A stretch of DNA of 64,000 bases from an uncultured virus (IMG/VR IMGVR_UViG_3300024509_000012) (lineage: Duplodnaviria > Heunggongvirae > Uroviricota > Caudoviricetes), in IMG/VR virus record IMGVR_UViG_3300024509_000012; one strand, given 5' to 3'. Below, piece after piece: positions 8,729-37,992 of this stretch; positions within the stretch are counted from its first letter, which is position 1; each line of letters starts with the position of its first letter. The notes under the pieces are model-generated. The model saw only the letters and a program-made list of their open reading frames with translations, was not told where the DNA came from and searched no databases. Position numbers and translations under genes: made by a program.

Positions 8729-8823
8729 ATAAAAAAGGCGCAGAATCTGCGCCGATTAGATTCTCCTTAAATTTTTATCTAACTATACAATACAATTGTA
8801 ACATAATTTAAATTTATTGTCAA
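8729..8823 (-). ncRNA. candidate ~60-nt small RNA or attenuator with its own promoter and terminator
   Basis: TTGACA (8818-8823)-17-TACAAT (8795-8800), hairpin TTAGAT...ATCTAA, then GC-rich hairpin ggcgcagattctgcgcc followed by T6. Confidence 0.45.
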
Positions 8824-8829
8824 GTTAAA

Positions 8830-9165
8830 TTGCAACTTTTCTGTTGCAAGGAAAGTTGCCAACCCCGTCTGAAACTGTTTAGGCAGCAGCAGACATTGCT
8901 AATACGTTAGTATTTGCGTTTATAGTTCCCGATTTTACAGTAGTCGGCTACTGGATAGATTCCCCTTCTCTAGCTCATCCCGTCGAAACCATTTCGTCCC
9001 CCCCAAAAGCACACTGCTCAAGATTTTTATGTACACTATTATATCTTGGGTTGCACTTTGTTCGAATTTGCCATGCAACTAGCTCCTCACAATGTGCTTT
9101 TGGTGGAGACGCTGGGAGTCGAACCCAGGTCCGAAATGCATTCAATCCAGATCAACACCTATCAT
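8830..9165 (-). ncRNA. ssrA: circularly permuted (two-piece) tmRNA
   Basis: T-arm and acceptor 3' end (GGTTCGACTCC...CGTCTCCACCA, ending 9101) precede the 5' GGGGACG...TTCGAC piece (starting 9001); G3.U70 pair; tag ORF 8879-8917 ANTNVLAMSAAA-stop; outer ends approximate. Confidence 0.92.
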
Positions 9166-9169
9166 TTAA

Positions 9170-9177
9170 TATTTATA
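9170..9177 (-). promoter_or_regulatory. T4-type late promoter upstream of the tmRNA
   Basis: Exact TATAAATA on the minus strand; gp55 is in the window. Confidence 0.7.
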
Positions 9178-9188
9178 TGGTTTAATCA

Positions 9189-9653
9189 TTAATCATGATC
9201 ATATCCATCTACTGTTACACCATCATTTCGTGATACTGTAACTTCAGCATGATCACCAAACATCTCTTCTAGATCCGAATCATCAAAGATATTCATTAGT
9301 TCGTCAATGTCGTTATATGCTTTCTTAAGTGATTCAAGTGAATCAAAACCCAGTTCTTCTAAATCTAGATCTTGTCTGTATACCTCGTGGTTTAAAGTCC
9401 AAGAATCTATCGTATCATCAGAGTTATTAATCTTGTAATAATCTCGATTCACTGAAAAATAACAAGTTTCACCATCATTGAAATAAGGTGTATATTGGTT
9501 CCAAGAAAACGAGTTAAGTTGAGGGTTATTTGTAAAGATATCTTTTGAGATTTCAGTAAAGACGTTCTTTGCATTCTCCTTCATCATAATCTTGTGTTCT
9601 TCCATAACACGCTTGAACTCACGAATCTTATCTAGAAAAACATTCTTATCCAT
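9189..9653 (-). CDS. hypothetical phage protein
   Basis: Open frame with W-x-QYTPYFNDG motif; co-oriented operon. Confidence 0.7.
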   Translation of the reverse strand: MDKNVFLDKIREFKRVMEEHKIMMKENAKNVFTEISKDIFTNNPQLNSFSWNQYTPYFNDGETCYFSVNRDYYKINNSDDTIDSWTLNHEVYRQDLDLEELGFDSLESLKKAYNDIDELMNIFDDSDLEEMFGDHAEVTVSRNDGVTVDGYDHD

Positions 9654-23358: not shown

Positions 23359-24222
23359 ATGTCCTGTTATCACTACATTTACAAACTAGAACTACTTGAT
23401 GAAAACAATGTAGAAATTCATAATTATTTCGGCAAGAGATCCTGCTCAGTTAACCCTGAGCAGGATTGTCGTTATATGGGATCACCAAAAACAGCAAAAG
23501 AAATTATAAAAAACTGGCCCAAAGAACGTAAGAAAAAAATAATTCTCGAACATCACAAAAATAGAATTAGTTTGGGTATTGCAGAAGAAAAAATTATCAG
23601 AGAAAATATCCACGACAAACCAAAAAACTTAAACTATGCAATAAGTGGAAAAAATTATTATTTAACACCAGAACAATTAAGTGAAATTGGTAAAAAAGCA
23701 TATGCAACAGCATTAGCTAAATTAACTCCAGAACAAAGAAGTGAAAATGGTAAAAAGGGATATGAATCATCATTAGCTAAATTAACACCAGAACAATTAA
23801 GTGAAATTGGTAAAAAAGGGGGTAAAAAGGGATATGAATCATCATTAGCTAAATTAACACCAGAACAAAAAAGTAAAATTGGTAAAAAAGGAGCAACAAA
23901 ATGGTTGGAGAGTAGCACACCAGAAGAAAGAAGTGAAATTGCTAAAAAAAGAGCAACAAAATGGTTGGAGAGTAGCACACCAGAAGAAAGAAGTGAAATT
24001 GCTAAAAAAGGACATATAACAAGAAAATTAAAAAGGATGTCAGCAAACTATACATTAGAGACACCACAAACAAAAATTTGCTCAATGTGTAAAAAAGAAA
24101 AATTATTTTCCCAATATAATAAAAAGAAAGATGGAAAATATAATCTAAGTGCAGAATGTAAAGAATGTCACAATATAAAAAATAAAATTTATTACTACAA
24201 TAAAAAAGAAAAGTTATGGTAA
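23359..24222 (+). CDS. GIY-YIG/Seg-like homing endonuclease with internal helical repeats and C-terminal Zn finger
   Basis: YIY...YFGKRS...YMGS...E...N N-terminus; six TPE[QE]xS[EK]xxKK repeats; CSMC...CKEC. Confidence 0.7.
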   Translation: MSCYHYIYKLELLDENNVEIHNYFGKRSCSVNPEQDCRYMGSPKTAKEIIKNWPKERKKKIILEHHKNRISLGIAEEKIIRENIHDKPKNLNYAISGKNYYLTPEQLSEIGKKAYATALAKLTPEQRSENGKKGYESSLAKLTPEQLSEIGKKGGKKGYESSLAKLTPEQKSKIGKKGATKWLESSTPEERSEIAKKRATKWLESSTPEERSEIAKKGHITRKLKRMSANYTLETPQTKICSMCKKEKLFSQYNKKKDGKYNLSAECKECHNIKNKIYYYNKKEKLW

Positions 24223-25450: not shown

Positions 25451-25675
25451 ATGATTACCATTACACAACACACAAACACCGGAATTAAAGTTCATGTGAA
25501 TGCTTGGAAAGCAAACAACATTAATTTTTCAATTTTTATTGAAGATGAAGAATATGATTCCGGTACTACAATTGATAATGATATTGTCGGTGAAGCCAAA
25601 TATTGGGCAAGAGTGACTGTTGCTGATATTGAAAATGGAAGATTAAAGAAAGTTAATGGTCGCTGGTTCATTTAG
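25451..25675 (+). CDS. hypothetical protein, leaderless
   Basis: Promoter ending TATACT just before ATG. Confidence 0.6.
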   Translation: MITITQHTNTGIKVHVNAWKANNINFSIFIEDEEYDSGTTIDNDIVGEAKYWARVTVADIENGRLKKVNGRWFI

Positions 25676-25716
25676 TTGTTGACAGTCTGATATTCAGTTT
25701 GCTATACTGGTTTCAT

Positions 25717-26382
25717 ATGACGATCTGGAACATCGACGCAAACGCAAAAACGGTCAAGGGTCAGAAGCTTGGATATCAGACCGGAATCATTTATCTGGCT
25801 CCTGGTGATTTGTCTGGTCATCAGGTCTGTGCTGGTGCTTCTAAAGAATGTTTGGCATTCTGCCTGAACACTTCTGGCATGGGTGCATTCTCTAATGTCC
25901 AGAATGGACGCATCAACAAGACCAAGAAGTTGTTTGAAAATCGTGAAAAATTTATTGCCCAGGCTTTGAAAGAACTTGACAAAGCTTGTGCTGCTGCGGT
26001 AAAATCTAATCTGGTTCCTGTTTTTCGTCCGAATGGAACTTCTGATCTGCCTTGGTTGGCTAAGGCATTGCACACTGCACGTCCTAATGTCCAGTTCTAT
26101 GATTACACTAAACTGGATCGCCCTTGGGAGCGTGTTTCTGAAAATTACCACTTGACTTATTCTTTCAGTGGTGATAATATGGAGAAGTGCTTGGAAGCGT
26201 TGAAGCATGGTGTTAATGTCGCTGTTGTTTTCGACAAGTTGCCCAAAACTCATTGGGGCTATCCTGTGGTAAATGGCGACGAAACTGATCTTCGCTTCTT
26301 GGATGCCAAAGGCGTGATTGTTGGATTGAAAGCCAAAGGCAAAGCACGAAACAAAAAATCTGAATTTATTCAGATTGGCTAG
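25717..26382 (+). CDS. phage gp88-like protein (Cys-motif, radical-SAM-like fold by inference)
   Basis: C...S..C...CL..SG.G, RPNGTSD, QFYDYTK, YHLTYS, GDETDLRFLD, GLKAKG. Confidence 0.75.
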   Translation: MTIWNIDANAKTVKGQKLGYQTGIIYLAPGDLSGHQVCAGASKECLAFCLNTSGMGAFSNVQNGRINKTKKLFENREKFIAQALKELDKACAAAVKSNLVPVFRPNGTSDLPWLAKALHTARPNVQFYDYTKLDRPWERVSENYHLTYSFSGDNMEKCLEALKHGVNVAVVFDKLPKTHWGYPVVNGDETDLRFLDAKGVIVGLKAKGKARNKKSEFIQIG

Positions 26383-26417
26383 TTGACAACCTGACCAAAC
26401 TGTGAGATACTAACAAT

Positions 26418-27419
26418 ATGAACATCACGAACTTCGTTGACCAGATGACTGAAAAGCACGGCGGCACCATTCTTCGTGCTAAGACTATTAAGCAGGAAGC
26501 TGAAATTTTCAATGTTCGCATTCCTGTTAAGTTTTGGACTCTTGGTAAGATTTCTCGTGGCATCTTCGATCTGAACGTGCTGCGAAATGTTAATGGTGTT
26601 GCTGAAGCTCCTGGTGAAGTTGTTCCTCTTGTTGTGGAAACTGACGAGGAAATTCTGGAGCGTCAGCGTGATGGTTTCTCTTCGATGGATCGCATGGTGG
26701 AAGCTGTTATTGAAGGCAAGGTCACGTCGATGATTGTTTCCGGCAATCCTGGCATCGGCAAGACCTACAACATCGAAATGATGTTGGAGAATGCTTTCCT
26801 TGATGAGAAGATTAACTACACTCCTGTTAAGGGCTTTGTTCGTCCTACTGGCATTTTCCGGATGTTGTGGGAAAATCGTCATGAAAACAGTGTTTTGCTG
26901 ATTGATGACGCTGATTCTGTTTTCGATGATGAAGTTGGTCTGAACATCTGGAAAGCTGCTTTGGATAGCACCAAACGCCGCATGATTTCCTGGAAAACGG
27001 AAAAGAAGTGGGAAGATGATGCTGGCGATGAAATTCCTTCCACGTTTGAATTTCGTGGTTCTGTGATTTTCGTCACCAATCGGGATTTTGATGCCATGAT
27101 CCAGCAGGGCAACAAAATGTCACCTCACTATCAGGCACTGATTTCCCGTTCGTTCTACTTGGATTTGAATTTGCGAAATACCCGTGAGTTCCTGATCCGA
27201 ATCAAGGACGTGGTTCAGAACACCGATATGCTTCACACTCTGGGACTGGAAGAAAACCAGCAGCAGACGTTGATGCAGTTTGTGGAGGACAACCACAAGA
27301 AGCTGCGGGAATTGTCGCTTCGCATGGTGTTGAAGTTGGCGAAAATTCTGAAGTTTGCGAAGTCTGATGAAGATTTCGTGAAAGTTGCGAAATCCACTTG
27401 TTTCAAGGTGGCCCGTTAA
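26418..27419 (+). CDS. AAA+ ATPase
   Basis: GNPGIGKT Walker A, LLIDDAD Walker B, IFVTN, ALISR. Confidence 0.85.
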   Translation: MNITNFVDQMTEKHGGTILRAKTIKQEAEIFNVRIPVKFWTLGKISRGIFDLNVLRNVNGVAEAPGEVVPLVVETDEEILERQRDGFSSMDRMVEAVIEGKVTSMIVSGNPGIGKTYNIEMMLENAFLDEKINYTPVKGFVRPTGIFRMLWENRHENSVLLIDDADSVFDDEVGLNIWKAALDSTKRRMISWKTEKKWEDDAGDEIPSTFEFRGSVIFVTNRDFDAMIQQGNKMSPHYQALISRSFYLDLNLRNTREFLIRIKDVVQNTDMLHTLGLEENQQQTLMQFVEDNHKKLRELSLRMVLKLAKILKFAKSDEDFVKVAKSTCFKVAR

Positions 27420-27444
27420 GGGCCACCTGTGGTATAATATAATC

Positions 27445-27630
27445 ATGAAGAAATCAATCTACAAAAGAAATATTTGGTCTGCGTCTAGGTCTATGTCTTG
27501 GTCTATGTCTGGGTCTTGGTCTGGGTCTGGATCTAGGTCTAGGTCTTGGTATGGGTTTGGGTCTAGGTCTTGGTCTGGGTCTAGGTCTGAGTCTAGGTCT
27601 GGGTCTAGGTCTTATTCTGAAACTGGTTAA
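27445..27630 (+). CDS. (Ser-X)n repeat microprotein, copy 1
   Basis: MKKSIYKRNIW + (SX)n + YSETG; ATG 6 nt after TATAAT. Confidence 0.7.
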   Translation: MKKSIYKRNIWSASRSMSWSMSGSWSGSGSRSRSWYGFGSRSWSGSRSESRSGSRSYSETG

Positions 27631-27636
27631 TAAACT

Positions 27637-27828
27637 ATGATCAAGAAATCAATCTACAAAAGAAATATTTGGTCTGGGACTGGGTCTTGGTCTTGGTCTT
27701 GGTCTTGGTCTGGGTCTAGGTCTAGGTCTATGTCTGGGTCTGAGTCTGGGTCTTGGTCTGGGTCTTGGTCTAGGTCTGGGTCTATGTCTGGGTCTAGGTC
27801 TTGGTCTTGGTCTGGGTCTGGGTCTTGA
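27637..27828 (+). CDS. (Ser-X)n repeat microprotein, copy 2
   Basis: MIKKSIYKRNIW + (SX)n. Confidence 0.7.
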   Translation: MIKKSIYKRNIWSGTGSWSWSWSWSGSRSRSMSGSESGSWSGSWSRSGSMSGSRSWSWSGSGS

Positions 27829-27859
27829 CGAACACATCAGCCTGTGGTATGATATAATC

Positions 27860-28027
27860 ATGAAGAAATCAAGAACACAAAAATTTAAGTCTTGGTCTGA
27901 GTCTATGTCTATGTCTATGTCTGGGTCTTGGTCTGGATCTTGGTCTGAGTCTGAGTCTATGTCTAGGTCTGGATCTTGGTCTGAGTCTGAGTCTATGTCT
28001 AGGTCTTGGTCTGGGTCTAGGTCTTGA
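27860..28027 (+). CDS. (Ser-X)n repeat microprotein, copy 3 (55 aa, not in ORF track)
   Basis: MKKSRTQKFK + (SX)n; TTGACG-17-TATGAT-6-ATG. Confidence 0.7.
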   Translation: MKKSRTQKFKSWSESMSMSMSGSWSGSWSESESMSRSGSWSESESMSRSWSGSRS

Positions 28028-28058
28028 CAAACACACAGAAAGGTGCTAATATAGTTTC

Positions 28059-28268
28059 ATGATGAAATCACGCATTTCAAGAGTGTGGACTGCATCCAGG
28101 TCTGGGGAAAAATCAATCCCTTGTTCCGGTATTAGAACTGGTTCTTGTTATCGACAAATCACTTTCACCGGAAAGTGGGCAAGAGTCCGTTCTTATATGA
28201 AATTGTGGTATGGATTGAAAACTTCAAAAATTGAGTTGACAACTAACCTGAAAGGTGCTAAGATATAA
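28059..28268 (+). CDS. basic hypothetical protein, leaderless
   Basis: Own promoter starting 28024. Confidence 0.5.
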   Translation: MMKSRISRVWTASRSGEKSIPCSGIRTGSCYRQITFTGKWARVRSYMKLWYGLKTSKIELTTNLKGAKI

Positions 28269-28270
28269 TC

Positions 28271-28480
28271 ATGAGTAACGAACAACTGCACGACCTCATT
28301 AACGAATATGTAGAATTGATTGTTGATACAATGGACATGGAGGATCTCATCAATCATGCCTATGAATCCATTCATGCACGTTTGGAGCAGATGGGGACTG
28401 AAGATATTCTGGCAGAAATCACAGAAGTTGCCCCTGAACTCTTGACAGACGACATGGAATCTGGTACACTGGAACAGTAG
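28271..28480 (+). CDS. acidic hypothetical protein
   Basis: Own promoter; D/E-rich helical pattern. Confidence 0.65.
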   Translation: MSNEQLHDLINEYVELIVDTMDMEDLINHAYESIHARLEQMGTEDILAEITEVAPELLTDDMESGTLEQ

Positions 28481-28488
28481 AGGAAAAC

Positions 28489-28707
28489 ATGATTAACGAT
28501 CTGACTGTAAAAGAATTGGATTTGCTGACTCAGGTTTATGCAACCAAGTTGGTTGAATCTATGAGTGAATGGGAACTGGCAGAAATTGTTGAAGGTTCCT
28601 TCGTTGATGAATTTCGGAAAATGCCGCTGGATGAATACAAGGAACATTTTGATATTCCTGCATTCAAAACTGCTGTTGATATCGACAAGGGCTTGCGTAA
28701 GAAGTAA
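28489..28707 (+). CDS. hypothetical protein
   Basis: GAGG SD; co-oriented. Confidence 0.6.
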   Translation: MINDLTVKELDLLTQVYATKLVESMSEWELAEIVEGSFVDEFRKMPLDEYKEHFDIPAFKTAVDIDKGLRKK

Positions 28708-28769
28708 TTCTGTGGTATACTAGGGTTGTGAGTGAGAGAAACTCACAACCCACAAAAAAGGATATAAAT

Positions 28770-28967
28770 ATGGTAAAGCTTGAAAGTTCCGCTGTTTCTG
28801 GTGTTGGTTATGACCACATCAATCAGATTCTCACTGTGAAGTTTACTTCCGGTAAGAAGTATGACTACAAGGACGTTCCTGTTCAGGTCTATGAGGATCT
28901 GGTGAACGCACCTTCTTCTGGAAAGTTTCTGAACAAGGAAGTCAAGGGCAAGTATCAGACTGCCTAA
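28770..28967 (+). CDS. KTSC-domain protein
   Basis: SSAVSGVGYD....L.V.F.SG..Y.Y..VP..VY..L..A.S.GKF. Confidence 0.9.
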   Translation: MVKLESSAVSGVGYDHINQILTVKFTSGKKYDYKDVPVQVYEDLVNAPSSGKFLNKEVKGKYQTA

Positions 28968-28975
28968 AAGTTTTT

Positions 28976-29050
28976 GGCCCTGTCGTTCAATGGATAGGAC
29001 ATAGGTCTTCTAAACCTAGAATCGGGGTTCGAATCCCTGCGGGGCTACCA
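28976..29050 (+). tRNA. tRNA-Arg (UCU)
   Basis: Cloverleaf; anticodon arm TAGGT-CT TCT AA-ACCTA; GTTCGAATC T-loop; encoded CCA. Confidence 0.93.
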
Positions 29051-29060
29051 AATTTAATGT

Positions 29061-29136
29061 GCGCTCATAGCTCAGTTGGTAGAGCATCTGACTTTTAATC
29101 AGAGGGTCGCAGGTTCGAACCCTGCTGGGCGCACCA
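29061..29136 (+). tRNA. tRNA-Lys (UUU)
   Basis: Cloverleaf; TCTGA-CT TTT AA-TCAGA; GTTCGAACC; encoded CCA. Confidence 0.95.
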
Positions 29137-29180
29137 AAATTCTTCTTGACAAACATCCTGAATGGTGATAAGATTTAATC

Positions 29181-29642
29181 ATGGGACTTGATCAATACAT
29201 CAACCGCAAGAGCTACATTCAGAATTGGTCTTTCGACAAGGAAAACAAGTATGAAGTTGTTGTGACCAACAACGGACAACCTACCCACATCAAGAAGGAT
29301 AAAGTCACCTATGTGACTGAGGAACTTGGTTATTTCCGCAAGTTCAATGCACTCCACAACTGGTTTGTGCAGCTTGCTGATGGTAGGGATGAATGTCAAG
29401 AAATTATTTTCTATGAGGAAAATGTTGACAATCTTCTTTTAACCATGAAAGAAGTCCTGATCTCTAAGAGAGAAGATATTGCTCTTGAAATGTTTCCTCC
29501 TGTTTCTGGGTTTTTCTTTGGTTCCATTCAAATTGATGAGTGGTACTGGAACGACCTAGAAAGTGCCATCAAACTTTTCCAGGAAATCAAGGATGAATGG
29601 GTTGATGGTCGAACGACCTATTACTACCAAGCATCCTGGTAG
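29181..29642 (+). CDS. conserved phage hypothetical protein
   Basis: MGLDQY...YFRKFNALHNWF...GFFFGS...YQASW; own promoter. Confidence 0.75.
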   Translation: MGLDQYINRKSYIQNWSFDKENKYEVVVTNNGQPTHIKKDKVTYVTEELGYFRKFNALHNWFVQLADGRDECQEIIFYEENVDNLLLTMKEVLISKREDIALEMFPPVSGFFFGSIQIDEWYWNDLESAIKLFQEIKDEWVDGRTTYYYQASW

Positions 29643-29701
29643 TTTGCAGGGGGAAGAAATTCCCCCTTGACATTTCACCTAGAATGTGAGAGAATAAAAA
29701 C

Positions 29702-29896
29702 ATGACCAAGAAATCAATCTACAAAAGAAATATTTGGTCTAGGTCTGGGTCTGAGTCTCAGTTTGCGTCTTGGTCTGGGTCTAGGTCTTGGTCTAGGTCT
29801 GAGTCTGGGTCTTGGTCTGTGTCTTGGTCTGGGTCTGGGTCTTGGTCTGGGTCTTGGTCTGCGTCTGGGTCTGGGTCTAGGTCTGAGTCAAAATAA
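29702..29896 (+). CDS. (Ser-X)n repeat microprotein, copy 4
   Basis: MTKKSIYKRNIW + (SX)n; TTGACA-17-GAGAAT-6-ATG. Confidence 0.7.
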   Translation: MTKKSIYKRNIWSRSGSESQFASWSGSRSWSRSESGSWSVSWSGSGSWSGSWSASGSGSRSESK

Positions 29897-29934
29897 ACCT
29901 TGACATTCTGATCAGAATGTGAGAGAATAAAAAC

Positions 29935-30285
29935 ATGAGAGTTAAAGTCTACTTCAACCTTCACAAGAAAGTTTTCTCTGTCATGGACAAAAAAACCCGC
30001 AAGGTTATTGCCCACACCGACACCATCATCCTGAAAAATGCCAAGTTCACTGTTTCCAAGTCTGGACGGGAACGTGTTCTTCGTGAAAAAAAGAAAAATG
30101 TTCATGCCTTTGTTGAAGGTGATTGGCAAAAAGACCAAGAGCTTTTCCTGAAAAGGAACACGGTTCGTTACAATCCCTATGAGGCAGATTACTTCATCAA
30201 TGTCCTCACCGGAAAGAAAATTGAAACTTCCGCCTGGTGTGACCTCTTCATCGAAAACGGAAAGGCAAATATCTATGCTTATTAA
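29935..30285 (+). CDS. conserved phage hypothetical protein
   Basis: VYFNLHK..FSV...GRERVLREKKKNVHAFV.G...YNPY. Confidence 0.75.
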   Translation: MRVKVYFNLHKKVFSVMDKKTRKVIAHTDTIILKNAKFTVSKSGRERVLREKKKNVHAFVEGDWQKDQELFLKRNTVRYNPYEADYFINVLTGKKIETSAWCDLFIENGKANIYAY

Positions 30286-30509
30286 CTGGAACGACTACAA
30301 AGATCATGACGACTACCAGGAGTATGACTGGGACGACTAATATAGAATAGCATTTCTTGGGCCGGAAACGGCCCTTCCTGCCCTTAAAATTTCTAGCAGG
30401 TAGTTGGAGGCTAGAAAAACAAAAAACAAAAAACTTGACAAATCACACAGGGTGTGAGATACTAAAAGAGTCAGAGGAAATCTGACAAGAAAAAAGGAGA
30501 AAACTGATT

Positions 30510-30776
30510 ATGAAGAAGATTGTGACTGAGGTTCAGGGTGAAGGTCTTGTGGCCCTTCTTGGTGAGCACGTGATGTTGTTCTGTGCGAACTACATCTATG
30601 CTGGTACGCTCACTGGAGTGAACGATACCTGTGTCCTTCTGGACGATGCCAAGATTGTTTATGAGACTGGTGCGTTCAGCGATTCGAAGTACAAGGACGC
30701 TCAGAACCTTCCCACGAAGACTTGGTATGTGCAGACTTCTGCAATTGAGTCTTTCGGCATCGGTAAGAAGGGTTAG
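30510..30776 (+). CDS. Sm/LSm-like fold protein (predicted)
   Basis: LVALLGEHVMLF...YAGTLTGVND..VLLDDA (Sm1-like) and WYVQTSAIESF (Sm2-like); promoter, leader hairpin, SD and terminator. Confidence 0.6.
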   Translation: MKKIVTEVQGEGLVALLGEHVMLFCANYIYAGTLTGVNDTCVLLDDAKIVYETGAFSDSKYKDAQNLPTKTWYVQTSAIESFGIGKKG

Positions 30777-30812
30777 TGGTTTGGGGGAGAAATCCCCCAA
30801 ACTTTTTTGTTT

Positions 30813-30971
30813 ATGATCAAGAAATCAATCTACAAAAGAAATATTTGGTCTATGTCTAGGTCTGGGTCTTGGTCTTTGTATGGGTCTAGGTCTGGGTCTA
30901 GGACTTGGTCTAGGTCTTGGTCTGGGTCTAGGTCTTGGTCTGTGTCTAGGACTTATTCTGAAATTGGATAA
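30813..30971 (+). CDS. (Ser-X)n repeat microprotein, copy 5 (52 aa, not in ORF track)
   Basis: MIKKSIYKRNIW + (SX)n + YSEIG. Confidence 0.65.
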   Translation: MIKKSIYKRNIWSMSRSGSWSLYGSRSGSRTWSRSWSGSRSWSVSRTYSEIG

Positions 30972-30977
30972 TAAACT

Positions 30978-31175
30978 ATGATCAAGAAATCAATCTACAA
31001 AAGAAATATTTGGTCTTGGTCTATGTCTGGGTCTAGATCTAGGTCTTGGTCTAGGTCTGGGTCTGGGTCTTGGTCTGGGTCTGGGTCTGGGTCTTGGTCT
31101 GGGTCTGGGTCTTGGTCTGCGTCTGGGTCTTGGTCTAGGTCTATGTCTAGGTCTTGGTTTAGGTCTACAAAATAA
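30978..31175 (+). CDS. (Ser-X)n repeat microprotein, copy 6
   Basis: MIKKSIYKRNIW + (SX)n. Confidence 0.7.
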   Translation: MIKKSIYKRNIWSWSMSGSRSRSWSRSGSGSWSGSGSGSWSGSGSWSASGSWSRSMSRSWFRSTK

Positions 31176-31388
31176 TGCTTGACAACCGAAAAGAAAGGTG
31201 CGATAATAATATCATGATGAACGATGTGATTGACGATCTGATTAGCGGAAACATGAAGGTAATCGGTCTGATGAACCTGATTATTAGCAGGTTCGATGAA
31301 AACGACGATGATTACCTGAACGCTCAGGCTATTATCGACTTTGTGACGATGCAGATTTTGGTTTTGTCTACGTTAAAGGATAATCAAA

Positions 31389-31508
31389 ATGCTGCAAAAG
31401 CTTAGTGTTTGGTTTTGTCGGGAATTCCACACAAAGATGACCAGACCTGTTAATGGTCATTACAGTTGCCTTGAATGTGGTAAGAAATACAAATCACCTT
31501 TTAACTAG
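31389..31508 (+). CDS. 39-aa putative Zn-binding microprotein (not in ORF track)
   Basis: MLQKLSVWFCREFHTKMTRPVNGHYSCLECGKKYKSPFN; AAGGA SD. Confidence 0.6.
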   Translation: MLQKLSVWFCREFHTKMTRPVNGHYSCLECGKKYKSPFN

Positions 31509-31516
31509 GAGAAAAA

Positions 31517-31720
31517 ATGCGGCACAGTATGGAAATTTGCTACAGAATTTGGAATGATGACACAGGTGACCATATTGCAGTCACAGATGATGCTGATGGA
31601 CTTGGGTTGTTTGAGATTCGCCAACATGACGATCAAGGAAAAATTATGAGTAGAATCACCTTGTCGAAAGAAGAATTACCTTTAATTATCAGTGCCTTAC
31701 AAAAAAAACTTGAAGAGTAG
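31517..31720 (+). CDS. hypothetical protein
   Basis: AGGAG SD. Confidence 0.65.
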   Translation: MRHSMEICYRIWNDDTGDHIAVTDDADGLGLFEIRQHDDQGKIMSRITLSKEELPLIISALQKKLEE

Positions 31721-31755
31721 TTGACATTGTGAAGAACACATGGGATAATAACAGT

Positions 31756-31893
31756 ATGGTTGAACACATCAAGCTGCCCAAGTTTAATCCTGCTAAGATC
31801 CGGTCTGGTGTAAAGACCGGATCTATTATCCAGGACAAGAAAACCAAAAGCAAGAATTATCGCAAGCGCAAGCACAAGAAGGAGGAAGAATAA
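31756..31893 (+). CDS. 45-aa basic microprotein, leaderless (not in ORF track)
   Basis: TTGACA-17-GATAAT-6-ATG; ends DKKTKSKNYRKRKHKKEEE. Confidence 0.65.
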   Translation: MVEHIKLPKFNPAKIRSGVKTGSIIQDKKTKSKNYRKRKHKKEEE

Positions 31894-32108
31894 TGCTTTA
31901 CAATGAGTATGAAGCAAAAACTCTTGAAGGTCAACAACTTGCGGATGAAGTGTATGAAGCATTGAAACCCATTGTAATCAATTGGCAACAAAAGGGTTAC
32001 AAGTTGCGGGAAATCCAGACTGTGATTGATTCTGAAGTTTTTTTAATGATTTCTGAAGCTGTTCTGGTTGCCGCAACAAAAAAGAAAAAACTTGGTTCTT
32101 GGGGTTGA
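31893..32108 (+). CDS. hypothetical protein
   Basis: TAATG coupling with GGAGG SD. Confidence 0.65.
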   Translation: MLYNEYEAKTLEGQQLADEVYEALKPIVINWQQKGYKLREIQTVIDSEVFLMISEAVLVAATKKKKLGSWG

Positions 32109-32602
32109 CAAACCCCTCAGACTGTGAGATGATGGATTCATGACAAGAAAAGAACTTCGACTCAAATATCTTACGTTTTTCATGGCGGGTTATCTTTTCG
32201 GTGTGATTATTATTTTTTTCGCCATGAAAGCAGATTGTGCAATTAAGTAGTTGACAAATTCCCCAGACTGTGAGATGATGGATTCATGAAACGGCTTATC
32301 AGTGATTCGATGTTTGACATTCTGTTGATTGTCCTGGTTGTTTCTTTGTTTTCTATTGCATTTCCGACTGTGCTGGATTTTTCGAAAGAGTTGAAAAAAA
32401 CTCTTGACATCCCCAAAACTTCTGTGGTAAAGTAAAAACATGAGCAAACAACACCTGATGCTTTCGATTCTGAACTGCCCCAACTGCAAACGGAACGTTT
32501 GTGACTTTCACAAAAACTTGAAAAATTCTGTTGACAACCGGAAAAAGGTTGTGGTAAAGTAAAAGAGTCAGGGCAAGAGCCAGGACAAAAGGAGAAAAGA
32601 CC

Positions 32603-32866
32603 ATGTTTCTGAAGAAAGTTAAGTTTTCGACCCTCCCTATCAAGCGTTTCCTGGTTGGTGACCTTCCTGGGAATTTCAATCCTGAAAATGTTGTAGAATC
32701 TGAGACTTACGCTGGTGCTGTTGGTGACTGGATTGACTTGGGTATGAATGAAACTGAAGTTTATGCTCAGATTGGTGAAGACTACTTCCCCATCACGTTC
32801 CACACTGATGGTTCTGACACTGCCACTCTGGAACGTGGGGTGTTTGAACGCCGAATCGCTGAATAG
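32603..32866 (+). CDS. acidic hypothetical protein
   Basis: Promoter, leader hairpin and AAGGAG SD. Confidence 0.7.
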   Translation: MFLKKVKFSTLPIKRFLVGDLPGNFNPENVVESETYAGAVGDWIDLGMNETEVYAQIGEDYFPITFHTDGSDTATLERGVFERRIAE

Positions 32867-32923
32867 CAAAAAAACTTCAAGTGGGGGGTTGACAAACCCC
32901 CCAGAATGTGAGAAACTAAAAGT

Positions 32924-33247
32924 ATGAAATTCTTCCATTTTTCTCAAAATAATTCAGGTGGTCATTTCACCGGACCAGCAAAACACGTTGTTGTTGAGGC
33001 TGAAAACGCCGAAGATGCGAACAATCGTGTTTTAGAAGTAGAGGGTGTTTACTTCGATGGTTGTGATTCTGGCGTTGACTGCCCTTGTTGCGGTGATCGC
33101 TGGTCCAGCAAATGGTCTGGTGAAGTTGGCGATGATGTCCCGTCTACTTATGGTGATCCTGTTGTTTTTGGTGATGGTGATGGTGATGGTGATGTTTTAG
33201 TGGTTTACGCAAACGGTGAAAAAAAGAGGGGACTTTTTCACTGGTAA
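32924..33247 (+). CDS. conserved phage hypothetical protein
   Basis: F.QNNSGG...YFDG...DCPCCGDRW; leaderless. Confidence 0.75.
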   Translation: MKFFHFSQNNSGGHFTGPAKHVVVEAENAEDANNRVLEVEGVYFDGCDSGVDCPCCGDRWSSKWSGEVGDDVPSTYGDPVVFGDGDGDGDVLVVYANGEKKRGLFHW

Positions 33248-33285
33248 CTGTTGACAAACCCCCCAGAATGTGAGATACTAACAAT

Positions 33286-33522
33286 ATGAAGAATCCATTC
33301 GGCAAAACTGCCAAGATTGACAATCCTCATATGATTTTCAAGAGTTTTGATGGTTCCTGGGAATGGCGTGTTCTCAAGACCTATCAGACTCCGGAAAAGG
33401 AAAAGCAAAACCCCTTCGCTCGCTGGTACTGTGCGGTGAAGTCTCCAATGACATATGGAACGTTTGATGTGGGCGATGTCTATGTTGCTGAAATCAAACA
33501 GGTTGCGGTTCAGGTGAAGTAA
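33286..33522 (+). CDS. conserved phage hypothetical protein
   Basis: WEWRVLKTYQ...ARWYCAVKSP.T.G..D.GDVY; leaderless. Confidence 0.75.
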   Translation: MKNPFGKTAKIDNPHMIFKSFDGSWEWRVLKTYQTPEKEKQNPFARWYCAVKSPMTYGTFDVGDVYVAEIKQVAVQVK

Positions 33523-33637
33523 AGTGTGGGGGGCGAAAATCCCCCACAAAAAAACAAAAAAAGTTGTTGACTTCCCTGCTACAACGTGCGATACTAAAAG
33601 AGTCAGGGCAAGAGCCAAGACAAAAGGAGAAAACGGA

Positions 33638-33856
33638 ATGTTTGAAGACTACGACACCTACGAGTTCTACGAAAACGACCTGGAAGAAATGGGTCGGAAT
33701 GAAGCCTGGGAAGATGCTCAGGCTGAAATGGCCGACATCTATGATTCTGACGATTTCCAGGACTATCCTGAAGATCCTAGTTTTGAGCTGGAGGACCAGC
33801 ACCTGGATTCGATGTATGAATCGCAGTATGAGTCTTACGACTACTACGGGGAATAG
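33638..33856 (+). CDS. highly acidic 72-aa protein
   Basis: 27 D/E residues, one R, no K; promoter, leader hairpin and SD. Confidence 0.7.
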   Translation: MFEDYDTYEFYENDLEEMGRNEAWEDAQAEMADIYDSDDFQDYPEDPSFELEDQHLDSMYESQYESYDYYGE

Positions 33857-33894
33857 GTGATTCCTGGGCCGGAAACGGCCCTTCCTGGGGTTTT

Positions 33895-33987
33895 GGGTGT
33901 CAGGGGTACCCCTGACACCCCTCAGAGAATGGCAACAGAAAAAACTTCTAGTTTTCATCATTTTTCTGTTGCCATTCTCTGAGGGGT
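33895..33987. repeat. 26-bp perfect palindrome overlapping a 27-bp inverted repeat
   Basis: gggtgtcaggggtacccctgacaccc (33895-33920); arms 33917-33943 / 33961-33987. Confidence 0.9.
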
Positions 33988-34003
33988 CGTGGTAATATAA
34001 ATC

Positions 34004-34219
34004 ATGGTTGAAAAACAGAAACTTGAAATCAACACCTTTGACCGTGGCAGCATCTACTGCTTCACTGAGTTTTTGCTGAATGGCACACTGGTTGCTGATT
34101 GGAACCCTAAGAAAAAAGAACTGATGTTGTTTTCTGAAGAGAAGATTTCCTTAGTTCCCTGCAAAACTTTGCAGTCTGCGATTTCCAAAGTTGTGAAATT
34201 TCACAAAAAGTTGTTCTAG
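34004..34219 (+). CDS. hypothetical protein, leaderless
   Basis: TTGCCA...TAATAT-6-ATG. Confidence 0.6.
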   Translation: MVEKQKLEINTFDRGSIYCFTEFLLNGTLVADWNPKKKELMLFSEEKISLVPCKTLQSAISKVVKFHKKLF

Positions 34220-34257
34220 GGGTTGACAAACCCCTTCCAGTATGGGAGAATAAAATC

Positions 34258-34539
34258 ATGAAAAGCGATTTGCAGGAATTTCTCGAAGATTGTGGTTTTG
34301 AGTGCAGGGGCTATTCTGGCCGTTATATGGGTGGCAAATCTTGCCTTGCCATTGTGGTTGACACAATGGCTGAGATTTTGGATGTGATGTATGAAATGGG
34401 ACGTAGAAACGTTTACGTCCCAACCAATGTGAAATGGGATAACATGGGTTATGGATATGTTTTCTACTGGCCGGGAGTTGAGTTTGTGGGTGATGTAGAA
34501 AATGAGGATGGTGGCGATGAGGGGATGGGGGAGGAATAA
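34258..34539 (+). CDS. hypothetical protein, leaderless
   Basis: YSGRYM.GK.CL...DNMG...V.YWP; own promoter. Confidence 0.7.
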   Translation: MKSDLQEFLEDCGFECRGYSGRYMGGKSCLAIVVDTMAEILDVMYEMGRRNVYVPTNVKWDNMGYGYVFYWPGVEFVGDVENEDGGDEGMGEE

Positions 34540-34641
34540 CCTCCCCCAAGAAAAAAAGTTCTGAAAACTGTTGACAAGCAACCGAACCTGTGAGATACTA
34601 AAAGAGTCAGGGCAAGCCTGATAGAAAAGGAAAAAACGAAA

Positions 34642-34905
34642 ATGCAGATGACCTTCAACTTCCAGACCGCTTCCTTCCAGAATGAGAAGGGTGCGATTCA
34701 GAACACCCCCAACACTGGCTACCAGATTCAAGTTGGTGTGGACAAGTCCAAGTACACCACGATCAATCTGGTGGACTCCAATCTTGGGGCTGTTATGTAC
34801 CTCTACAACCAGATTGTTGCTGAGAATGGCAATAAGAAGCGTGTTCGCAATCAGGTGACGGGCAAGATTATCGCCCGTCACATCAGCAAGAAGGTGGGGC
34901 AGTAG
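34642..34905 (+). CDS. hypothetical protein
   Basis: Promoter, leader hairpin, SD and terminator. Confidence 0.7.
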   Translation: MQMTFNFQTASFQNEKGAIQNTPNTGYQIQVGVDKSKYTTINLVDSNLGAVMYLYNQIVAENGNKKRVRNQVTGKIIARHISKKVGQ

Positions 34906-34910
34906 CCCCA

Positions 34911-35014
34911 CCTTTTAATTAAGTCCTTTTCCGTCAATGCGTAAGGGTCGTTTGTACCCCTCCAAAAGTATTGATGACCTACGCATAATGCCGGAAAAGG
35001 ACTTAATTAAAAGG
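34911..35014. repeat. perfect 23-bp inverted repeat with imperfect inner extension
   Basis: ccttttaattaagtccttttccg (34911-34933) / cggaaaaggacttaattaaaagg (34992-35014). Confidence 0.9.
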
Positions 35015-35069
35015 AAATTTGAACACATCAGGTTGACAACCTGAACACATCGTGCTAAGATAGGAACAT

Positions 35070-35264
35070 ATGACACCCACGCCTGAGATTGTCGCCTCAA
35101 TTCAAGAGAAGTTCAGATCATATGATGCGAAGATTATTCTCGCAAACATGCGTTGGTCTAACTTGTGGGAACATTGGTTGTTTGATTGGGCCGGAATGAG
35201 TTGGCAAGTTGACCAATGGGGGCAAGTTAAGTTAAATTCTGCGAAGTTTGTTTGGGAAGATTAA
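35070..35264 (+). CDS. Trp-rich hypothetical protein
   Basis: Own promoter 35033-35061. Confidence 0.6.
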   Translation: MTPTPEIVASIQEKFRSYDAKIILANMRWSNLWEHWLFDWAGMSWQVDQWGQVKLNSAKFVWED

Positions 35265-35280
35265 CTGGTAGTTCCTTTGC

Positions 35281-35450
35281 CTACCAGTACCACTAGTACC
35301 GTCTGGTCAACGGTACTAGTACTGCGGATGGGCGCATTAGTACTAACTGGTCACTAGTACTAGTACGCCCATCCCCTTCCGATAGTACCACCAGGACCAA
35401 TAGTACCAGACCTGGCGAGGTACTAGTACTGGCACCAGGACCGATAGTAC
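35281..35450. repeat. GTAC/TAGTAC motif cluster
   Basis: 12 GTAC tetramers in 170 nt, including three GTACTAGTAC palindromes. Confidence 0.85.
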
Positions 35451-35507
35451 CAAAATTTTTTTTGTTTTTTTCTTGACATTTTTTTCTGACCTTGATACCA
35501 TTGACTC

Positions 35508-35723
35508 ATGGAACAAAATTACATTGAAGAAAAAATCATGACGGTCTATCACAACGGGAATGAATATAATTTAATCCATTCCCGTTGGGAGTGGAACGGT
35601 GAAAAATATGAGCATTTCGATTTGATGTTGGGACATCATGTTGGTCACTGGAACTATTGCCCGTTGTACCGTGAGATGATTGAAGTCATTGAAGATATGG
35701 AAAATAATGAAAATGGGGATTGA
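35508..35723 (+). CDS. hypothetical protein, leaderless
   Basis: TTGACA...TACCAT-6-ATG. Confidence 0.6.
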   Translation: MEQNYIEEKIMTVYHNGNEYNLIHSRWEWNGEKYEHFDLMLGHHVGHWNYCPLYREMIEVIEDMENNENGD

Positions 35724-35923
35724 CAATCCCCATTTTTTCATGAGAGAATAACAGTATGAAAAACAACGTTATCAATATGATTTTGGATGCGCTATCATTC
35801 GTTTTCCTTATGGGGGGTATTTATGGAATTTATGTAGTTTTTTCGTGGTAGGGTATTGCAGTTTAGTTCTGGCCTATGGTAATCTATAAGAGTTGAGGCC
35901 AGCGCCAAACAGAAAAGGAAAAA

Positions 35924-36544
35924 ATGACCATTTTTCGTATGACCAACGATTTCATGACCAACATCCTCGCCGTCTACAATATGGCGACGCCGGAAGAAAA
36001 ACGCTCCGGGGGTGCATGGTACACCGCCGCCCACGAACAATTACGGGTTATTGCCCGTGTTTCTAACTTTTCGTTCGATGCGGTAGTTGATGCAACTGCC
36101 GCATTATCGCCGGGTATCCGTTGGACTTCAAATTTGAATGGAATTGATATTTTGGCCGACGCTATCGCTAACGATAAGCCGTTATCGTTAGTGTCCGGTG
36201 TTGCGGGCTATCGTCGCAACATCGACAAGGCAGCTGCTATCCTGTTAGCAGACAAACGGAACGAACCGTTTCGCCATATTTTGAGCGGTCCCAAGGTTAC
36301 GGCTTTTGCTGATAACCTCCGCAACGGTGATAAGAACGGTGACGATAAGGTTACCGTAGACGTTCATGCCTATAGCGTTGCGGTAGGCTATCGCTACACT
36401 GTAGCGACAATGCCGCATATCGCAGAACGGGAACGTTCTGCGATTATTTCCGCATACCGGATGGTAGCGGGAATTGTTGGTTTGTCCGCATCTCAGGTTC
36501 AAGCTATTACTTGGGTGACGTGGAAACGAATCCACGGGATCTAA
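35924..36544 (+). CDS. conserved phage protein, GC-richer (HhH-glycosylase-like by inference)
   Basis: G..WY..A, AALSP...W..N, GPKVTAF..N, VTVDVHA, QAITW. Confidence 0.7.
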   Translation: MTIFRMTNDFMTNILAVYNMATPEEKRSGGAWYTAAHEQLRVIARVSNFSFDAVVDATAALSPGIRWTSNLNGIDILADAIANDKPLSLVSGVAGYRRNIDKAAAILLADKRNEPFRHILSGPKVTAFADNLRNGDKNGDDKVTVDVHAYSVAVGYRYTVATMPHIAERERSAIISAYRMVAGIVGLSASQVQAITWVTWKRIHGI

Positions 36545-36670
36545 TCCCGTCATGACGGGAAACGAAAAAAATATCGTTTCCCGTCATTTTTCGTTTGATT
36601 CTGTCCGATAGTGTGGTAATCTATAGGTGTAGGGGATACACCACTACAGAAAAGGAAAAGGAAAAGGAAA

Positions 36671-36877
36671 ATGACCAACAATTTCGAATTTGACGATTTC
36701 GACACGCAGATTAACTGCGAGGAAATGTCCGGTCCTACGGATCAGGAATTGCAGGAAATGATGGCTGAGGGGGAATGGAACTTTCCGGAGTTTGAGCCGG
36801 AATGGGACGGTGAATCGGTCGAAGAATTGACCGATATTTTCAAGGCGTTGGGTTTCAACGTTATCACGTTTGAGTAG
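36671..36877 (+). CDS. acidic hypothetical protein
   Basis: Promoter, leader hairpin, repeated AAGGA SD and terminator. Confidence 0.7.
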   Translation: MTNNFEFDDFDTQINCEEMSGPTDQELQEMMAEGEWNFPEFEPEWDGESVEELTDIFKALGFNVITFE

Positions 36878-36942
36878 AAAAAAAGGGGGGAAACCCCCTT
36901 TTTTTCATTGACAGAAACCACGTTTTCATGGGAGAATGAATT

Positions 36943-37179
36943 ATGGAAAAGTTACTGAAGATGTTGAATGACCGCAACTCCGCCAGCAAAATTTTGCTGG
37001 CGTATGCTGATTTAATTGTGGGGAACGAAAACAATCCCGAATTTTTTCAAACGATTCTGGATAATCTCCGGATTGATCCTTACTATAAGATGAGCGACGA
37101 TCACCGTGATTGGGTTTTGGGTGAGGCCCAAACTATACTCAAACAATCATGCGACTGGTGGCTGGCAAAAGGGGCTTAA
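36943..37179 (+). CDS. hypothetical protein, leaderless; last gene of the + array
   Basis: Own promoter; ggggc-ttaa-gcccc-tttt terminator. Confidence 0.65.
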   Translation: MEKLLKMLNDRNSASKILLAYADLIVGNENNPEFFQTILDNLRIDPYYKMSDDHRDWVLGEAQTILKQSCDWWLAKGA

Positions 37180-37419
37180 GCCCCTTTTGGTACTAGTACT
37201 AACACAACCTTAAAGTGGGAGTACTAGTACTCCCCCGGTAGGGTATTATGTATTATCCCCCACTTTAAAAAACTTTATTTCTTTTCCCCAGAAAACACAC
37301 CCAACCTAACACAATCTAAAAAAATAAAAAAATTCCCCCCAAAATTTTTCCCGCCAAAAATTTTTCCCCCAGAATTTTTTCCCCAGATGTTTTTATTCTG
37401 GTGGAAACACCAGATGTTT

Positions 37420-37992
37420 TTATTCTGGTGGAAACACCAGATATTTACACAAGTAATAACTATCTACCAAATCTGATACAGGTGAAGATATTTTAATTTT
37501 CTTTTTTGAGAATGTTTCTTTTAGCTTTAACTGTGTTTCTTCAAAAAATTTATCATACATATCATCTTTATTGCTTCTACCTGAACTTGTTGCATATTTC
37601 TTTAATGTGGTAGGAGCAATTTTTTGATATTTGTAATTTTCCACTTCTAACATATATTTCATTATTCCACAATTTTCTGCTAATTCAAATATCTTACCTT
37701 TTGATCCAAATGAATAATCTTCTATGATTATCATAGTTTCTGGATAATCATATGCTTGTTTTGTTATATCAATGCATCTAATTGTCCAGTTTGCTATTAA
37801 GGTAAATCTGTTGATTGGGGATTTGTAATTTTCTGGTGGTGTTGTTTGGTGTACAAATTCAAGAGGAGAAATTTGTTTTGTTTTGTTGTAATAAAAGAAA
37901 TTGCACATTCTAGGATCAAAAGATTTTTTGTCTCCATAGAATGTGCAAATTGAGGGTGATGTTATAGAATAATCAATTCCAATATAAAGCAT
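37420..37992 (-). CDS. RuvC-like Holliday-junction resolvase
   Basis: IGIDYS, IEDYSF, PTTLKKYAT..G..NKD, SDLVDSY. Confidence 0.82.
   Translation of the reverse strand: MLYIGIDYSITSPSICTFYGDKKSFDPRMCNFFYYNKTKQISPLEFVHQTTPPENYKSPINRFTLIANWTIRCIDITKQAYDYPETMIIIEDYSFGSKGKIFELAENCGIMKYMLEVENYKYQKIAPTTLKKYATSSGRSNKDDMYDKFFEETQLKLKETFSKKKIKISSPVSDLVDSYYLCKYLVFPPE

Follow-up and report, generated by a model that had tools for sequence, protein, structure and literature searches.

An Sm-fold protein and variable serine-alternating microproteins form a putative two-gene module in a T4-like river phage

Introduction

Several eukaryotic Sm and LSm proteins carry basic tails, with Arg-Gly repeats in SmD1, SmD3 and SmB and RGG repeats in LSm4. 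Here we describe a phage locus in which a comparable combination appears to be divided between separate genes. The locus lies in a 64,000-nucleotide (nt) stretch of DNA (hereafter the window; IMG/VR record IMGVR_UViG_3300024509_000012), part of an uncultured T4-like river phage, in which six small open reading frames (ORFs) between positions 27,445 and 31,175 encode peptides of serine alternating with a second residue (Ser-X microproteins), in the company of a gene for an acidic protein with an Sm fold. Like the eukaryotic proteins, the pair combines an Sm-fold core with a basic, Gly/Arg-rich, probably disordered segment built of dipeptide repeats. Unlike them, core and 'tail' are separate genes, the tail is of Ser-X type, abundant in Trp, multi-copy and hypervariable, and the core is acidic, matches no Pfam LSM model and belongs to the early region of a phage. 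The core also differs from archaeal SmAP and bacterial Hfq in its acidity, its lack of a conserved basic residue and its failure to match the LSM, Hfq and Phage_Hfq models. We consider it probable, from comparative sequence evidence, that the six ORFs are translated early genes of this phage and represent the multi-copy small half of a two-gene module with the Sm-fold protein.

Other described systems resemble the locus in single respects. The GGGGCC hexanucleotide repeat of C9orf72 gives rise to poly-GR and poly-PR dipeptide repeats, and in both cases a 6-nt DNA repeat with several open frames yields an Arg-containing dipeptide repeat; however, the phage genes have an ordinary ATG, leader and stop, keep one consistent frame and deliberately mix their units, and the comparative evidence in the Ser-X family is of purifying selection rather than pathology. 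Simple-sequence contingency loci are known in bacteria and phages. As in these, gain and loss of repeat units separate near-identical genomes (net +12, -24, +12 and -6 nt), but a 6-nt unit produces no on/off frameshift, and it is the length and composition of the peptide that vary. The RS domains of SR proteins and the GW/WG 'Ago-hook' repeats, including their plant-virus mimics, are likewise disordered multivalent modules with Arg or Trp flanked by Ser or Gly. This resemblance is one of composition only, and the Ser-X peptides, unlike those proteins, have no RNA-recognition motif or other folded domain in the chain. A full-text literature search, judged from titles and the openings of abstracts, returned no published description of the Ser-X/Sm-like pair, in agreement with an earlier note on this DNA, made from the sequence alone, whose author knew of no described function for the six ORFs.

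Results and discussion

Six Ser-X genes in the window

The ORFs are found at every start named in the earlier note, all on the + strand and 52-65 amino acids (aa) long. Copy 1 (27445-27630, 61 aa) has the leader MKKSIYKRNIWS and the tail YSETG; copy 2 (27637-27828, 63 aa) begins 6 nt past its stop. Copy 3 (27860-28027, 55 aa) has a divergent basic leader, MKKSRTQKFKS, and more Glu and Met, and copy 4 (29702-29896, 64 aa) has the leader MTKKSIYKRNIWS. Copy 5 (30813-30971, 52 aa), with the tail YSEIG, occupies the canonical position 3' of the Sm-like gene (30510-30776, + strand), and is followed by copy 6 (30978-31175, 65 aa), which has a net charge of +11. The description given in that note holds in most of its details. 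The leader shared by five copies is an exact 33-nt match with five occurrences in the window and none in 100 dinucleotide-preserving shuffles; pairs 1+2 and 5+6 share a junction in which YSETG (copy 1) or YSEIG (copy 5) is followed by TAATAA-ACT and the ATG opening copy 2 or 6; serine is mostly TCT (135/147 Ser-position codons), and X mostly ends in G (132/144 codons; GGG 39, TGG 34, AGG 29, ATG 12, GAG 10). Tandem Repeats Finder delimits period-6 arrays at 27483-27825, 27889-28024, 29736-29889, 30847-30950 and 31012-31166, with an additional 36-nt higher-order period in the array of copy 3. As translated, each peptide would consist of a basic leader of about 12 residues with an aromatic residue, followed by Ser alternating with Trp, Arg or Gly and less often with Met, Glu, Ala or Val.

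Conservation of the gene pair

Support for a two-gene module comes from approaching it independently from either side. Using an alignment of 21 Sm-like homologues (A1) as the query, we found at least 329 viral stretches that encode an Sm-like relative. In 69 of the best 80 of these, an ORF with at least five consecutive Ser-X dipeptides starts between -30 and +200 nt from the Sm-like stop; two others have no room for one. The 80 loci yield 56 distinct peptides, and in 16 the peptide start overlaps the Sm-like stop as ATGA. Starting instead from the repeat, the pattern (TCTNNG)8TCT occurs at no fewer than 125 IMG/VR loci. Among the 125 listed, 62 hold small ORFs of the W/G/R Ser-X type by our criterion, 47 of them with a Met within the 25 residues before the array, and the other 63 carry repeats of unrelated kinds (Ser-Leu, Ser-Ser or Ser-Pro, for example). 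Where at least 350 nt of upstream room is available, the Sm-like gene lies directly upstream in 20 of 36 Ser-X loci. Co-occurrence with the Sm-like gene, which the earlier note had suggested pursuing, is strongly positive, and more so when sampled without bias through the Sm-like protein. Upstream of the pair the genes are diverse, DUF932 being the most frequent (4 of 62) and the others single matches, so the conserved unit is the pair itself.

Fusions of the two partners may be rare. A search among longer proteins gave three matches from 66 candidates, none with a Ser-X tail: two have N-terminal extensions only, and the third, of 423 aa, carries the Sm-like segment mid-chain with unrelated sequence after it. 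At locus L190 (1449-1667; compare L069), the C-terminal residues of the Sm-like protein (…IESFCETNKS) reappear at the end of a Ser-X ORF, which suggests that recombination or duplication joined an array to a copy of the partner's 3' end.

The Sm-fold partner

The conserved partner is an 88-aa acidic protein (isoelectric point, pI, 5.2) with the features of the Sm/LSm fold, namely an N-terminal helix followed by a strongly bent five-stranded antiparallel beta-sheet. Its sequence is remote from described families: no Pfam family (LSM, Hfq and Phage_Hfq models included) is matched at E<=0.01, PHROGs and NCBIfam models are unmatched above their cut-offs, Sm proteins are absent from a PDB profile search at E<=1, and a protein atlas offers LSM, Hfq and Phage_Hfq as weak leads only (0.79-0.83). 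Acidity is a property of the family: of the 21 aligned members, 19 have a net negative charge and the median pI is 5.0, and the charge is likewise negative for 88% of a set of 84 representatives 80-100 aa long. Five Glu/Asp and three Tyr are among the residues that are invariant or nearly so in the 21-sequence alignment; no Lys or Arg is. The uridine-binding pocket of Sm/LSm proteins is formed by an aromatic residue and Asn in loop 3 and by Arg-Gly in loop 5. At the level of the sequence alignment, the Sm-like family conserves Tyr28, Tyr30 and Asn38, together with a stretch Y51-E52-T53-G54 that contains no Arg.

Among 1.84 billion representatives, the family comprises 568 clusters (50% identity) at E<=0.001, of which 370 reach E<=1e-10. 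Widespread as it is in these clusters and in the viral stretches above, it is unannotated by Pfam, PHROGs and NCBIfam, and a relative occurs in only one of 50,697 deposited phage records, that one uncultured. The shortness and low complexity of the Ser-X peptides put them out of reach of ordinary gene finding and homology searching: a homology query with copy 6 returned one match (43 aa, 'hypothetical protein') among 1,044 candidates, and the protein atlas gave it no usable match. The peptides therefore fall into a blind spot of phage annotation.

Comparative evidence that the arrays are probably coding

Since four of the six frames of a hexamer array are open by construction, openness proves nothing. 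The absence of TAG from the X positions of the window (0 seen, 3.8 expected) is too weak, and circular for an ORF. More can be learned from codon choice. In the non-duplicate arrays behind the partner gene, Ser positions are filled by TCT (579), TCG (495), AGC (88), TCA (83) and TCC (41); the codon is nearly uniform inside each array and differs between lineages, even to the other serine codon box (AGC). The Pro-Arg product of the opposite strand and the Gly-Leu product of the +1 frame are not conserved across these changes. That one of them, (Pro-Arg)n or (Gly-Leu)n, is the real product is scarcely credible. Both frames are open over several arrays (for example 27649-27861 on the - strand, 70 aa, and 29763-29903 on the + strand, 46 aa), and the commonest first-base change at X (T/G/A) is synonymous in both. 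However, arrays 1, 5 and 6 have no listed opposite-strand ORF, TCA lineages would, from the codon counts, read TGA on the opposite strand, and AGC and TCG change the identity of the alternative products while leaving Ser-X as it is. Leaders, promoters and neighbouring genes all indicate the Ser frame of the + strand.

The leader is conserved in design. Across 49 distinct peptides it has a median of 10 aa, with 4 basic and 0 acidic residues, and an aromatic residue falls within its last 4 positions in 39; for a few of these peptides the start taken is an internal ATG. Leader sequences vary among lineages around this one shared design.

Non-repeat homologues provide a further line of evidence. 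A genome-collection search for Sm-like relatives, made with an alignment of 8 closer sequences, led to Nitrospinota genome contigs of up to 3.36 Mb with a chromosomal Sm-like gene (L236-L243). At seven of these loci the coupled ORF, overlapping as ATGA, encodes a non-repetitive peptide of 49-51 aa, rich in Ser, Gly, Trp and Arg and with a basic leader; at L241 no peptide ORF is present at the overlap position. Three of the peptide orthologues have a ratio of non-synonymous to synonymous differences (pN/pS) of 0.18-0.23 at pS 0.42-0.59, and they use a mixture of Gly, Arg and Ser codons (GGC 13, GGA 13, GGT 11, GGG 9). The bacterial pair is flanked by a divergent HTH_3 regulator gene and an Mrp/ApbC-type ATPase gene at all four loci examined. 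AlphaFold2 (AF2) gave the peptide (7 sequences) no confident fold, with a predicted local distance difference test (pLDDT) score of 51.6, which fits disorder and would also fit a shallow alignment.

These homologues bear on whether the nucleic acid, rather than the peptide, is the functional product. Under this alternative, which the earlier note had raised as repeat RNA, an (NGG-NNN)n RNA or DNA would act as a ligand wound round the Sm-like ring, a G-rich structure or a protein sponge, with the ORF incidental. Ring proteins that bind spaced short RNA repeats do exist, TRAP being an example, which counts in its favour, as does the third base of X, G in nearly all arrays outside the window as well as in those within it. 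Window arrays also fold better than shuffles (z -4.9 to -5.1), yet this propensity is not conserved: TCG arrays give -2.5 and -3.5, an AGC array +0.2, TCA arrays +2.1 and -3.6, and a TCC array -10.6. The 3-nt spacer, moreover, is always a serine codon despite its changes of sequence, AGC included, so the nucleotide motif is not conserved while serine is, and the Nitrospinota homologues combine mixed Gly and Arg codons with a pN/pS near 0.2. The arrays sit between an in-frame ATG plus leader and a stop, and Rfam 15 covariance models (25500-37500, E<=0.1) leave them unmatched, returning just two tRNAs and sub-threshold chance matches elsewhere. We therefore regard a functional nucleic acid as very unlikely. 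Because the serine codon varies while serine stays, the non-repeat homologues are under selection and the leader design is kept, the best reading of the sequences is that the six ORFs are real protein genes rather than neutral or RNA-level repeats.

Variation in arrays and copy number

The exact leader occurs in three IMG/VR contigs, which allows closely related phages to be compared. Flanking genes of the window and of loci L001-L003 are 98.8-100% identical (676/684, 999/1002, 208/210, 198/198, 349/351 and 267/267 nt), whereas the orthologous arrays differ from those of the window by +12 nt in copy 1 (L001), -24 nt in copy 4 (L001) and +12 nt in copy 6 (L003). In L007, copy 2 is 6 nt shorter, as its sole difference. 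L001 has an extra Ser-X copy 3' of its copy 4 orthologue, and the copies at three sites number 4, 2 and 1 (seven) in the contig of L001-L003 as against 3, 1 and 2 (six) in the window. The net differences in multiples of 6 nt and the changes in copy number thus reveal evolution in whole 6-nt units and by the addition or removal of genes, with the arrays diverging much faster than the surrounding sequence. Mechanistically, hexanucleotide arrays would gain or lose 6-nt units, so that copy number, length and residue order differ while the frame is kept. Expansions recur elsewhere, with at least 10 tandem Ser-X genes in L009/L010 and 7 in L034, where the tandem genes have leader types of their own, MITKRTKWRR… and MRYLFEGS…. 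A diversity-generating retroelement was considered as the source of the first-base variation and dropped, since no reverse transcriptase is among the Pfam matches of the surrounding block of about 12 kb.

How much of this variation matters to the phage is a separate issue. It could be mostly neutral microsatellite growth within a small real gene, with only the leader and a few Ser-X units of consequence and the rest slippage noise. Near-identical phages do differ by whole-unit gains and losses, codons are near-uniform within each array, as expected of young repeats with fast turnover, and the non-repeat Nitrospinota form needs just 49-51 aa. Nevertheless, arrays of 17-40 units are kept in the 56 distinct peptides and in lineages with five different Ser codons, W, G and R units remain intermixed with no collapse to a single unit, and the multi-copy expansions are independent and recurrent. 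Neutral growth thus seems quite unlikely, and the picture of a diversified family in the earlier note, as opposed to a neutral microsatellite, is supported.

A 69-aa ORF at 28059-28268 (+), with its own promoter motif, starts MMKSRISRVWTASRSG and then loses the repeat; its counterpart in L001 has 71 aa. Divergence or decay of a Ser-X family member may account for it.

The NGG codons at X

The codon for serine can switch freely whereas X stays fixed at NGG, a pattern that deserves attention in itself as a case of repeat evolution. Across the arrays, X is encoded by GGG (451), TGG (365), AGG (184) and CGG (147), against 21 for GGA, GGT and GGC together and 6 for AGA and CGT. The first base of X is saturated, and the synonymous third base of Gly hardly varies. 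Since the non-repeat homologues use all Gly codons, the NGG bias belongs to the arrays and not to the protein family. We propose a 'Trp lock' to account for it: the units would be homogenised together, as the array-wide switches of Ser codon indicate, and a third-base change spreading through an array would turn TGG into TGA or a Cys codon, so that Trp would pin all units to NGG. The choice between AGG and CGG seems to track lineage GC content.

Observations that weigh against translated, paired genes

Several observations speak against reading the six ORFs as translated genes paired with the Sm-like gene. Frame is preserved, as the earlier note stated, but with a 6-nt unit this would hold for non-coding sequence too, so it carries little weight alone. 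The scarcity of Gly third-base variants could also reflect a constraint at the nucleic-acid level. Transcription was assessed on contigs from three riverine metatranscriptome runs and one DNA run. The stretch with the Ser-X genes is present at 100% identity, and contigs of RNA and DNA runs alike break at the leaders and arrays; depth in the metatranscriptomes is similar to that in the DNA run, and in these contigs DNA carry-over is possible and strand and transcript ends are unreadable. One array in L009/L010 has no leader and switches from a Gly-Leu frame to the Ser-X frame, which indicates that some copies decay. With respect to pairing, 16 of the 36 Ser-X loci with upstream room have no adjacent Sm-like gene, and 9 of the 80 Sm-like loci show no clear Ser-X ORF despite having room for one (2 of the 9 have weaker Ser-X-like ORFs). 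Given unpaired loci on both sides, the link is strong but not obligate in cis. Finally, in the window phage itself a terminator-like hairpin of 11 pairs with a T run (30778-30812, +) lies between the Sm-like gene and copy 5. Four copies are not linked to the Sm-like gene, two or three of them with a promoter motif of their own, and together with the hairpin this points to a high and separately controlled dosage of the peptides.

Possible roles of the pair

The complementary charges, the leader design and the frequency of translational coupling are suggestive of direct binding between the peptides and the Sm-like protein. Complex prediction for the Sm-like protein and copy 5 scored 0.00 in both runs, which is no answer and counts as evidence neither way. 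RNA binding, amyloid or condensate formation and kinase decoying, all put forward in the earlier note, are guesses. It is possible, though doubtful, that the leader docks the basic peptides on an acidic, Tyr-rich Sm-like ring, and that the joint multivalent Arg/Trp surface binds RNA or another polyanion in host take-over. Such an assembly would be akin to an Sm core whose basic tail is supplied as a separate peptide, and the assembly, or peptides released from it, would engage its polyanion early in infection.

A bolder proposal, which we think unlikely, is that the pair makes condensates or ribonucleoproteins (RNPs), with the Sm-like ring as hub and peptides of stickers (Trp, Arg) and spacers (Ser, Gly) whose valency and dosage would be tuned by hexanucleotide slippage and gene amplification, giving the phage a quickly evolving means of capturing or rearranging host RNA, or of jamming RNA-guided or nucleic-acid-sensing defence, within the first minutes of infection. 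If so, the pair would be the counterpart, in a virus of prokaryotes, of the eukaryotic Sm core with basic tails, with a fixed, non-repeat version in Nitrospinota chromosomes. Should the pair handle RNA or form condensates, it would represent a new principle of early host take-over and a natural protein with microsatellite-set valency. The small size of the parts and the existence of non-repeat bacterial homologues make the pair directly testable in vitro.

Trp/Arg-rich peptides are also known as membrane-active agents. The Ser-X peptides, with net charges of +3 to +11 and 5-9 Trp apiece, could be toxic, membrane-active or nucleic-acid-coating, and the acidic Sm-like protein a chaperone or antidote and not an RNA binder. 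The partner's conserved Glu, Asp and Tyr without a conserved basic residue would suit such a role, and the start-stop overlap in 16 of 80 loci suggests co-production. Against this, a single Sm-like gene in the window (six-frame profile search) faces six peptide genes, four of them without an adjacent partner, which is an odd dosage for an antidote. The window peptides have no signal peptide or hydrophobic segment, PADLOC-DB 2.0 gave no family for the Sm-like protein, two peptides, the Nitrospinota peptide or two neighbours, and NCBIfam gave just one sub-threshold low-complexity match. A toxin with its antidote is accordingly an unlikely description of the pair.

The layout of a conserved leader and a variable core, in several precursor-like copies with identical leaders, also recalls precursors of ribosomally synthesised and post-translationally modified peptides (RiPPs), in which the leader would direct an enzyme that modifies the core serines. 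Leader-core modification was among the roles suggested in the earlier note, but no modifying enzyme is found in the block of about 12 kb (32 proteins, Pfam and PHROGs), none recurs among 62 upstream neighbours, and the sole conserved neighbour is the Sm-fold protein, which makes this role highly improbable.

Phage setting and neighbouring features

The window encodes a T4-like gene set that includes a gp55-like late sigma factor, an SbcCD-like nuclease, a UvsX-like recombinase, a family-B DNA polymerase, a DnaB-like helicase, a primase, ribonucleotide reductase, thymidylate synthase and RNA ligases. The Ser-X ORFs lie within a block of about 12 kb (~25.7-37.4 kb) of dense small + strand genes, with 40-45% GC against ~30% for the genome. 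Its Pfam matches are GP88, L5 gp82, DUF7326 (twice), KTSC, DUF7296 and DUF7178; GP88 and L5 gp82 are families first described in mycobacteriophages. The block may be a horizontally acquired set of early genes. Its left junction between low-GC and higher-GC DNA recurs in loci of three separate IMG/VR contigs and is therefore not an assembly chimera.

The block contains 24 + strand sites of the form TTGAC(A/G)-17/18-nt followed by a -10 element, 23 with TG before the -10; promoter-like sites in all number 46, against 18.8 expected. Most of those in the block end about 7 nt 5' of an ATG, a spacing that suggests leaderless early transcripts. These calls are motif matches rather than mapped transcript starts. 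Consensus-scan sites precede copy 3 (TTGACG-17-TATGAT, 27825-27853, +, ending 7 nt 5' of the ATG and with its -35 overlapping the TGA stop of copy 2) and copy 4 (TTGACA-17-GAGAAT, 29667-29695, +, ending 7 nt 5' of the ATG). Copy 1 is preceded by an extended -10 element, TGGTATAAT (27430-27438, +), which lies 7 nt 5' of the ATG, has no -35 match and is not among the scan sites. The three leaderless promoters originally proposed for the Ser-X genes thus become two consensus matches and one partial match. The site upstream of the Sm-like gene (30435-30463, +), also from the consensus scan, is followed by a leader of about 40 nt with AAGGAG.

Genes for tRNA-Arg(TCT) and tRNA-Lys(TTT) lie between copies 3 and 4 (28976-29136, +). 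The Ser-X leaders nearby are rich in AAA, AAG and AGA codons, and their tails encode Arg by AGG. A long hairpin between two small genes (33917-33987) matched plant microRNA precursor models on both strands, far below thresholds; this reflects chance similarity to an inverted repeat. Two tandem repeats (37333-37446; 15 nt x3.4 and 27 nt x2.4) mark the exact right-hand edge of the higher-GC block, beside a gene for a RuvC-like resolvase (37420-37992, -).

Further afield, a permuted transfer-messenger RNA gene is predicted by ARAGORN at 8788-9193 (-), with the tag peptide ANTNVLAMSAAA, beside an endolysin-like gene. A 287-aa ORF at 23359-24222 (+) contains 60-72-nt tandem repeats that encode units of the LTPEQxSEIGKKG type, and its C-terminus is endonuclease VII-like or Lar-like according to PHROGs. 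A 66-nt tandem repeat (50179-50463, -; 4.3 copies, 90% matches) lies within a 700-aa tail-fibre-like ORF.

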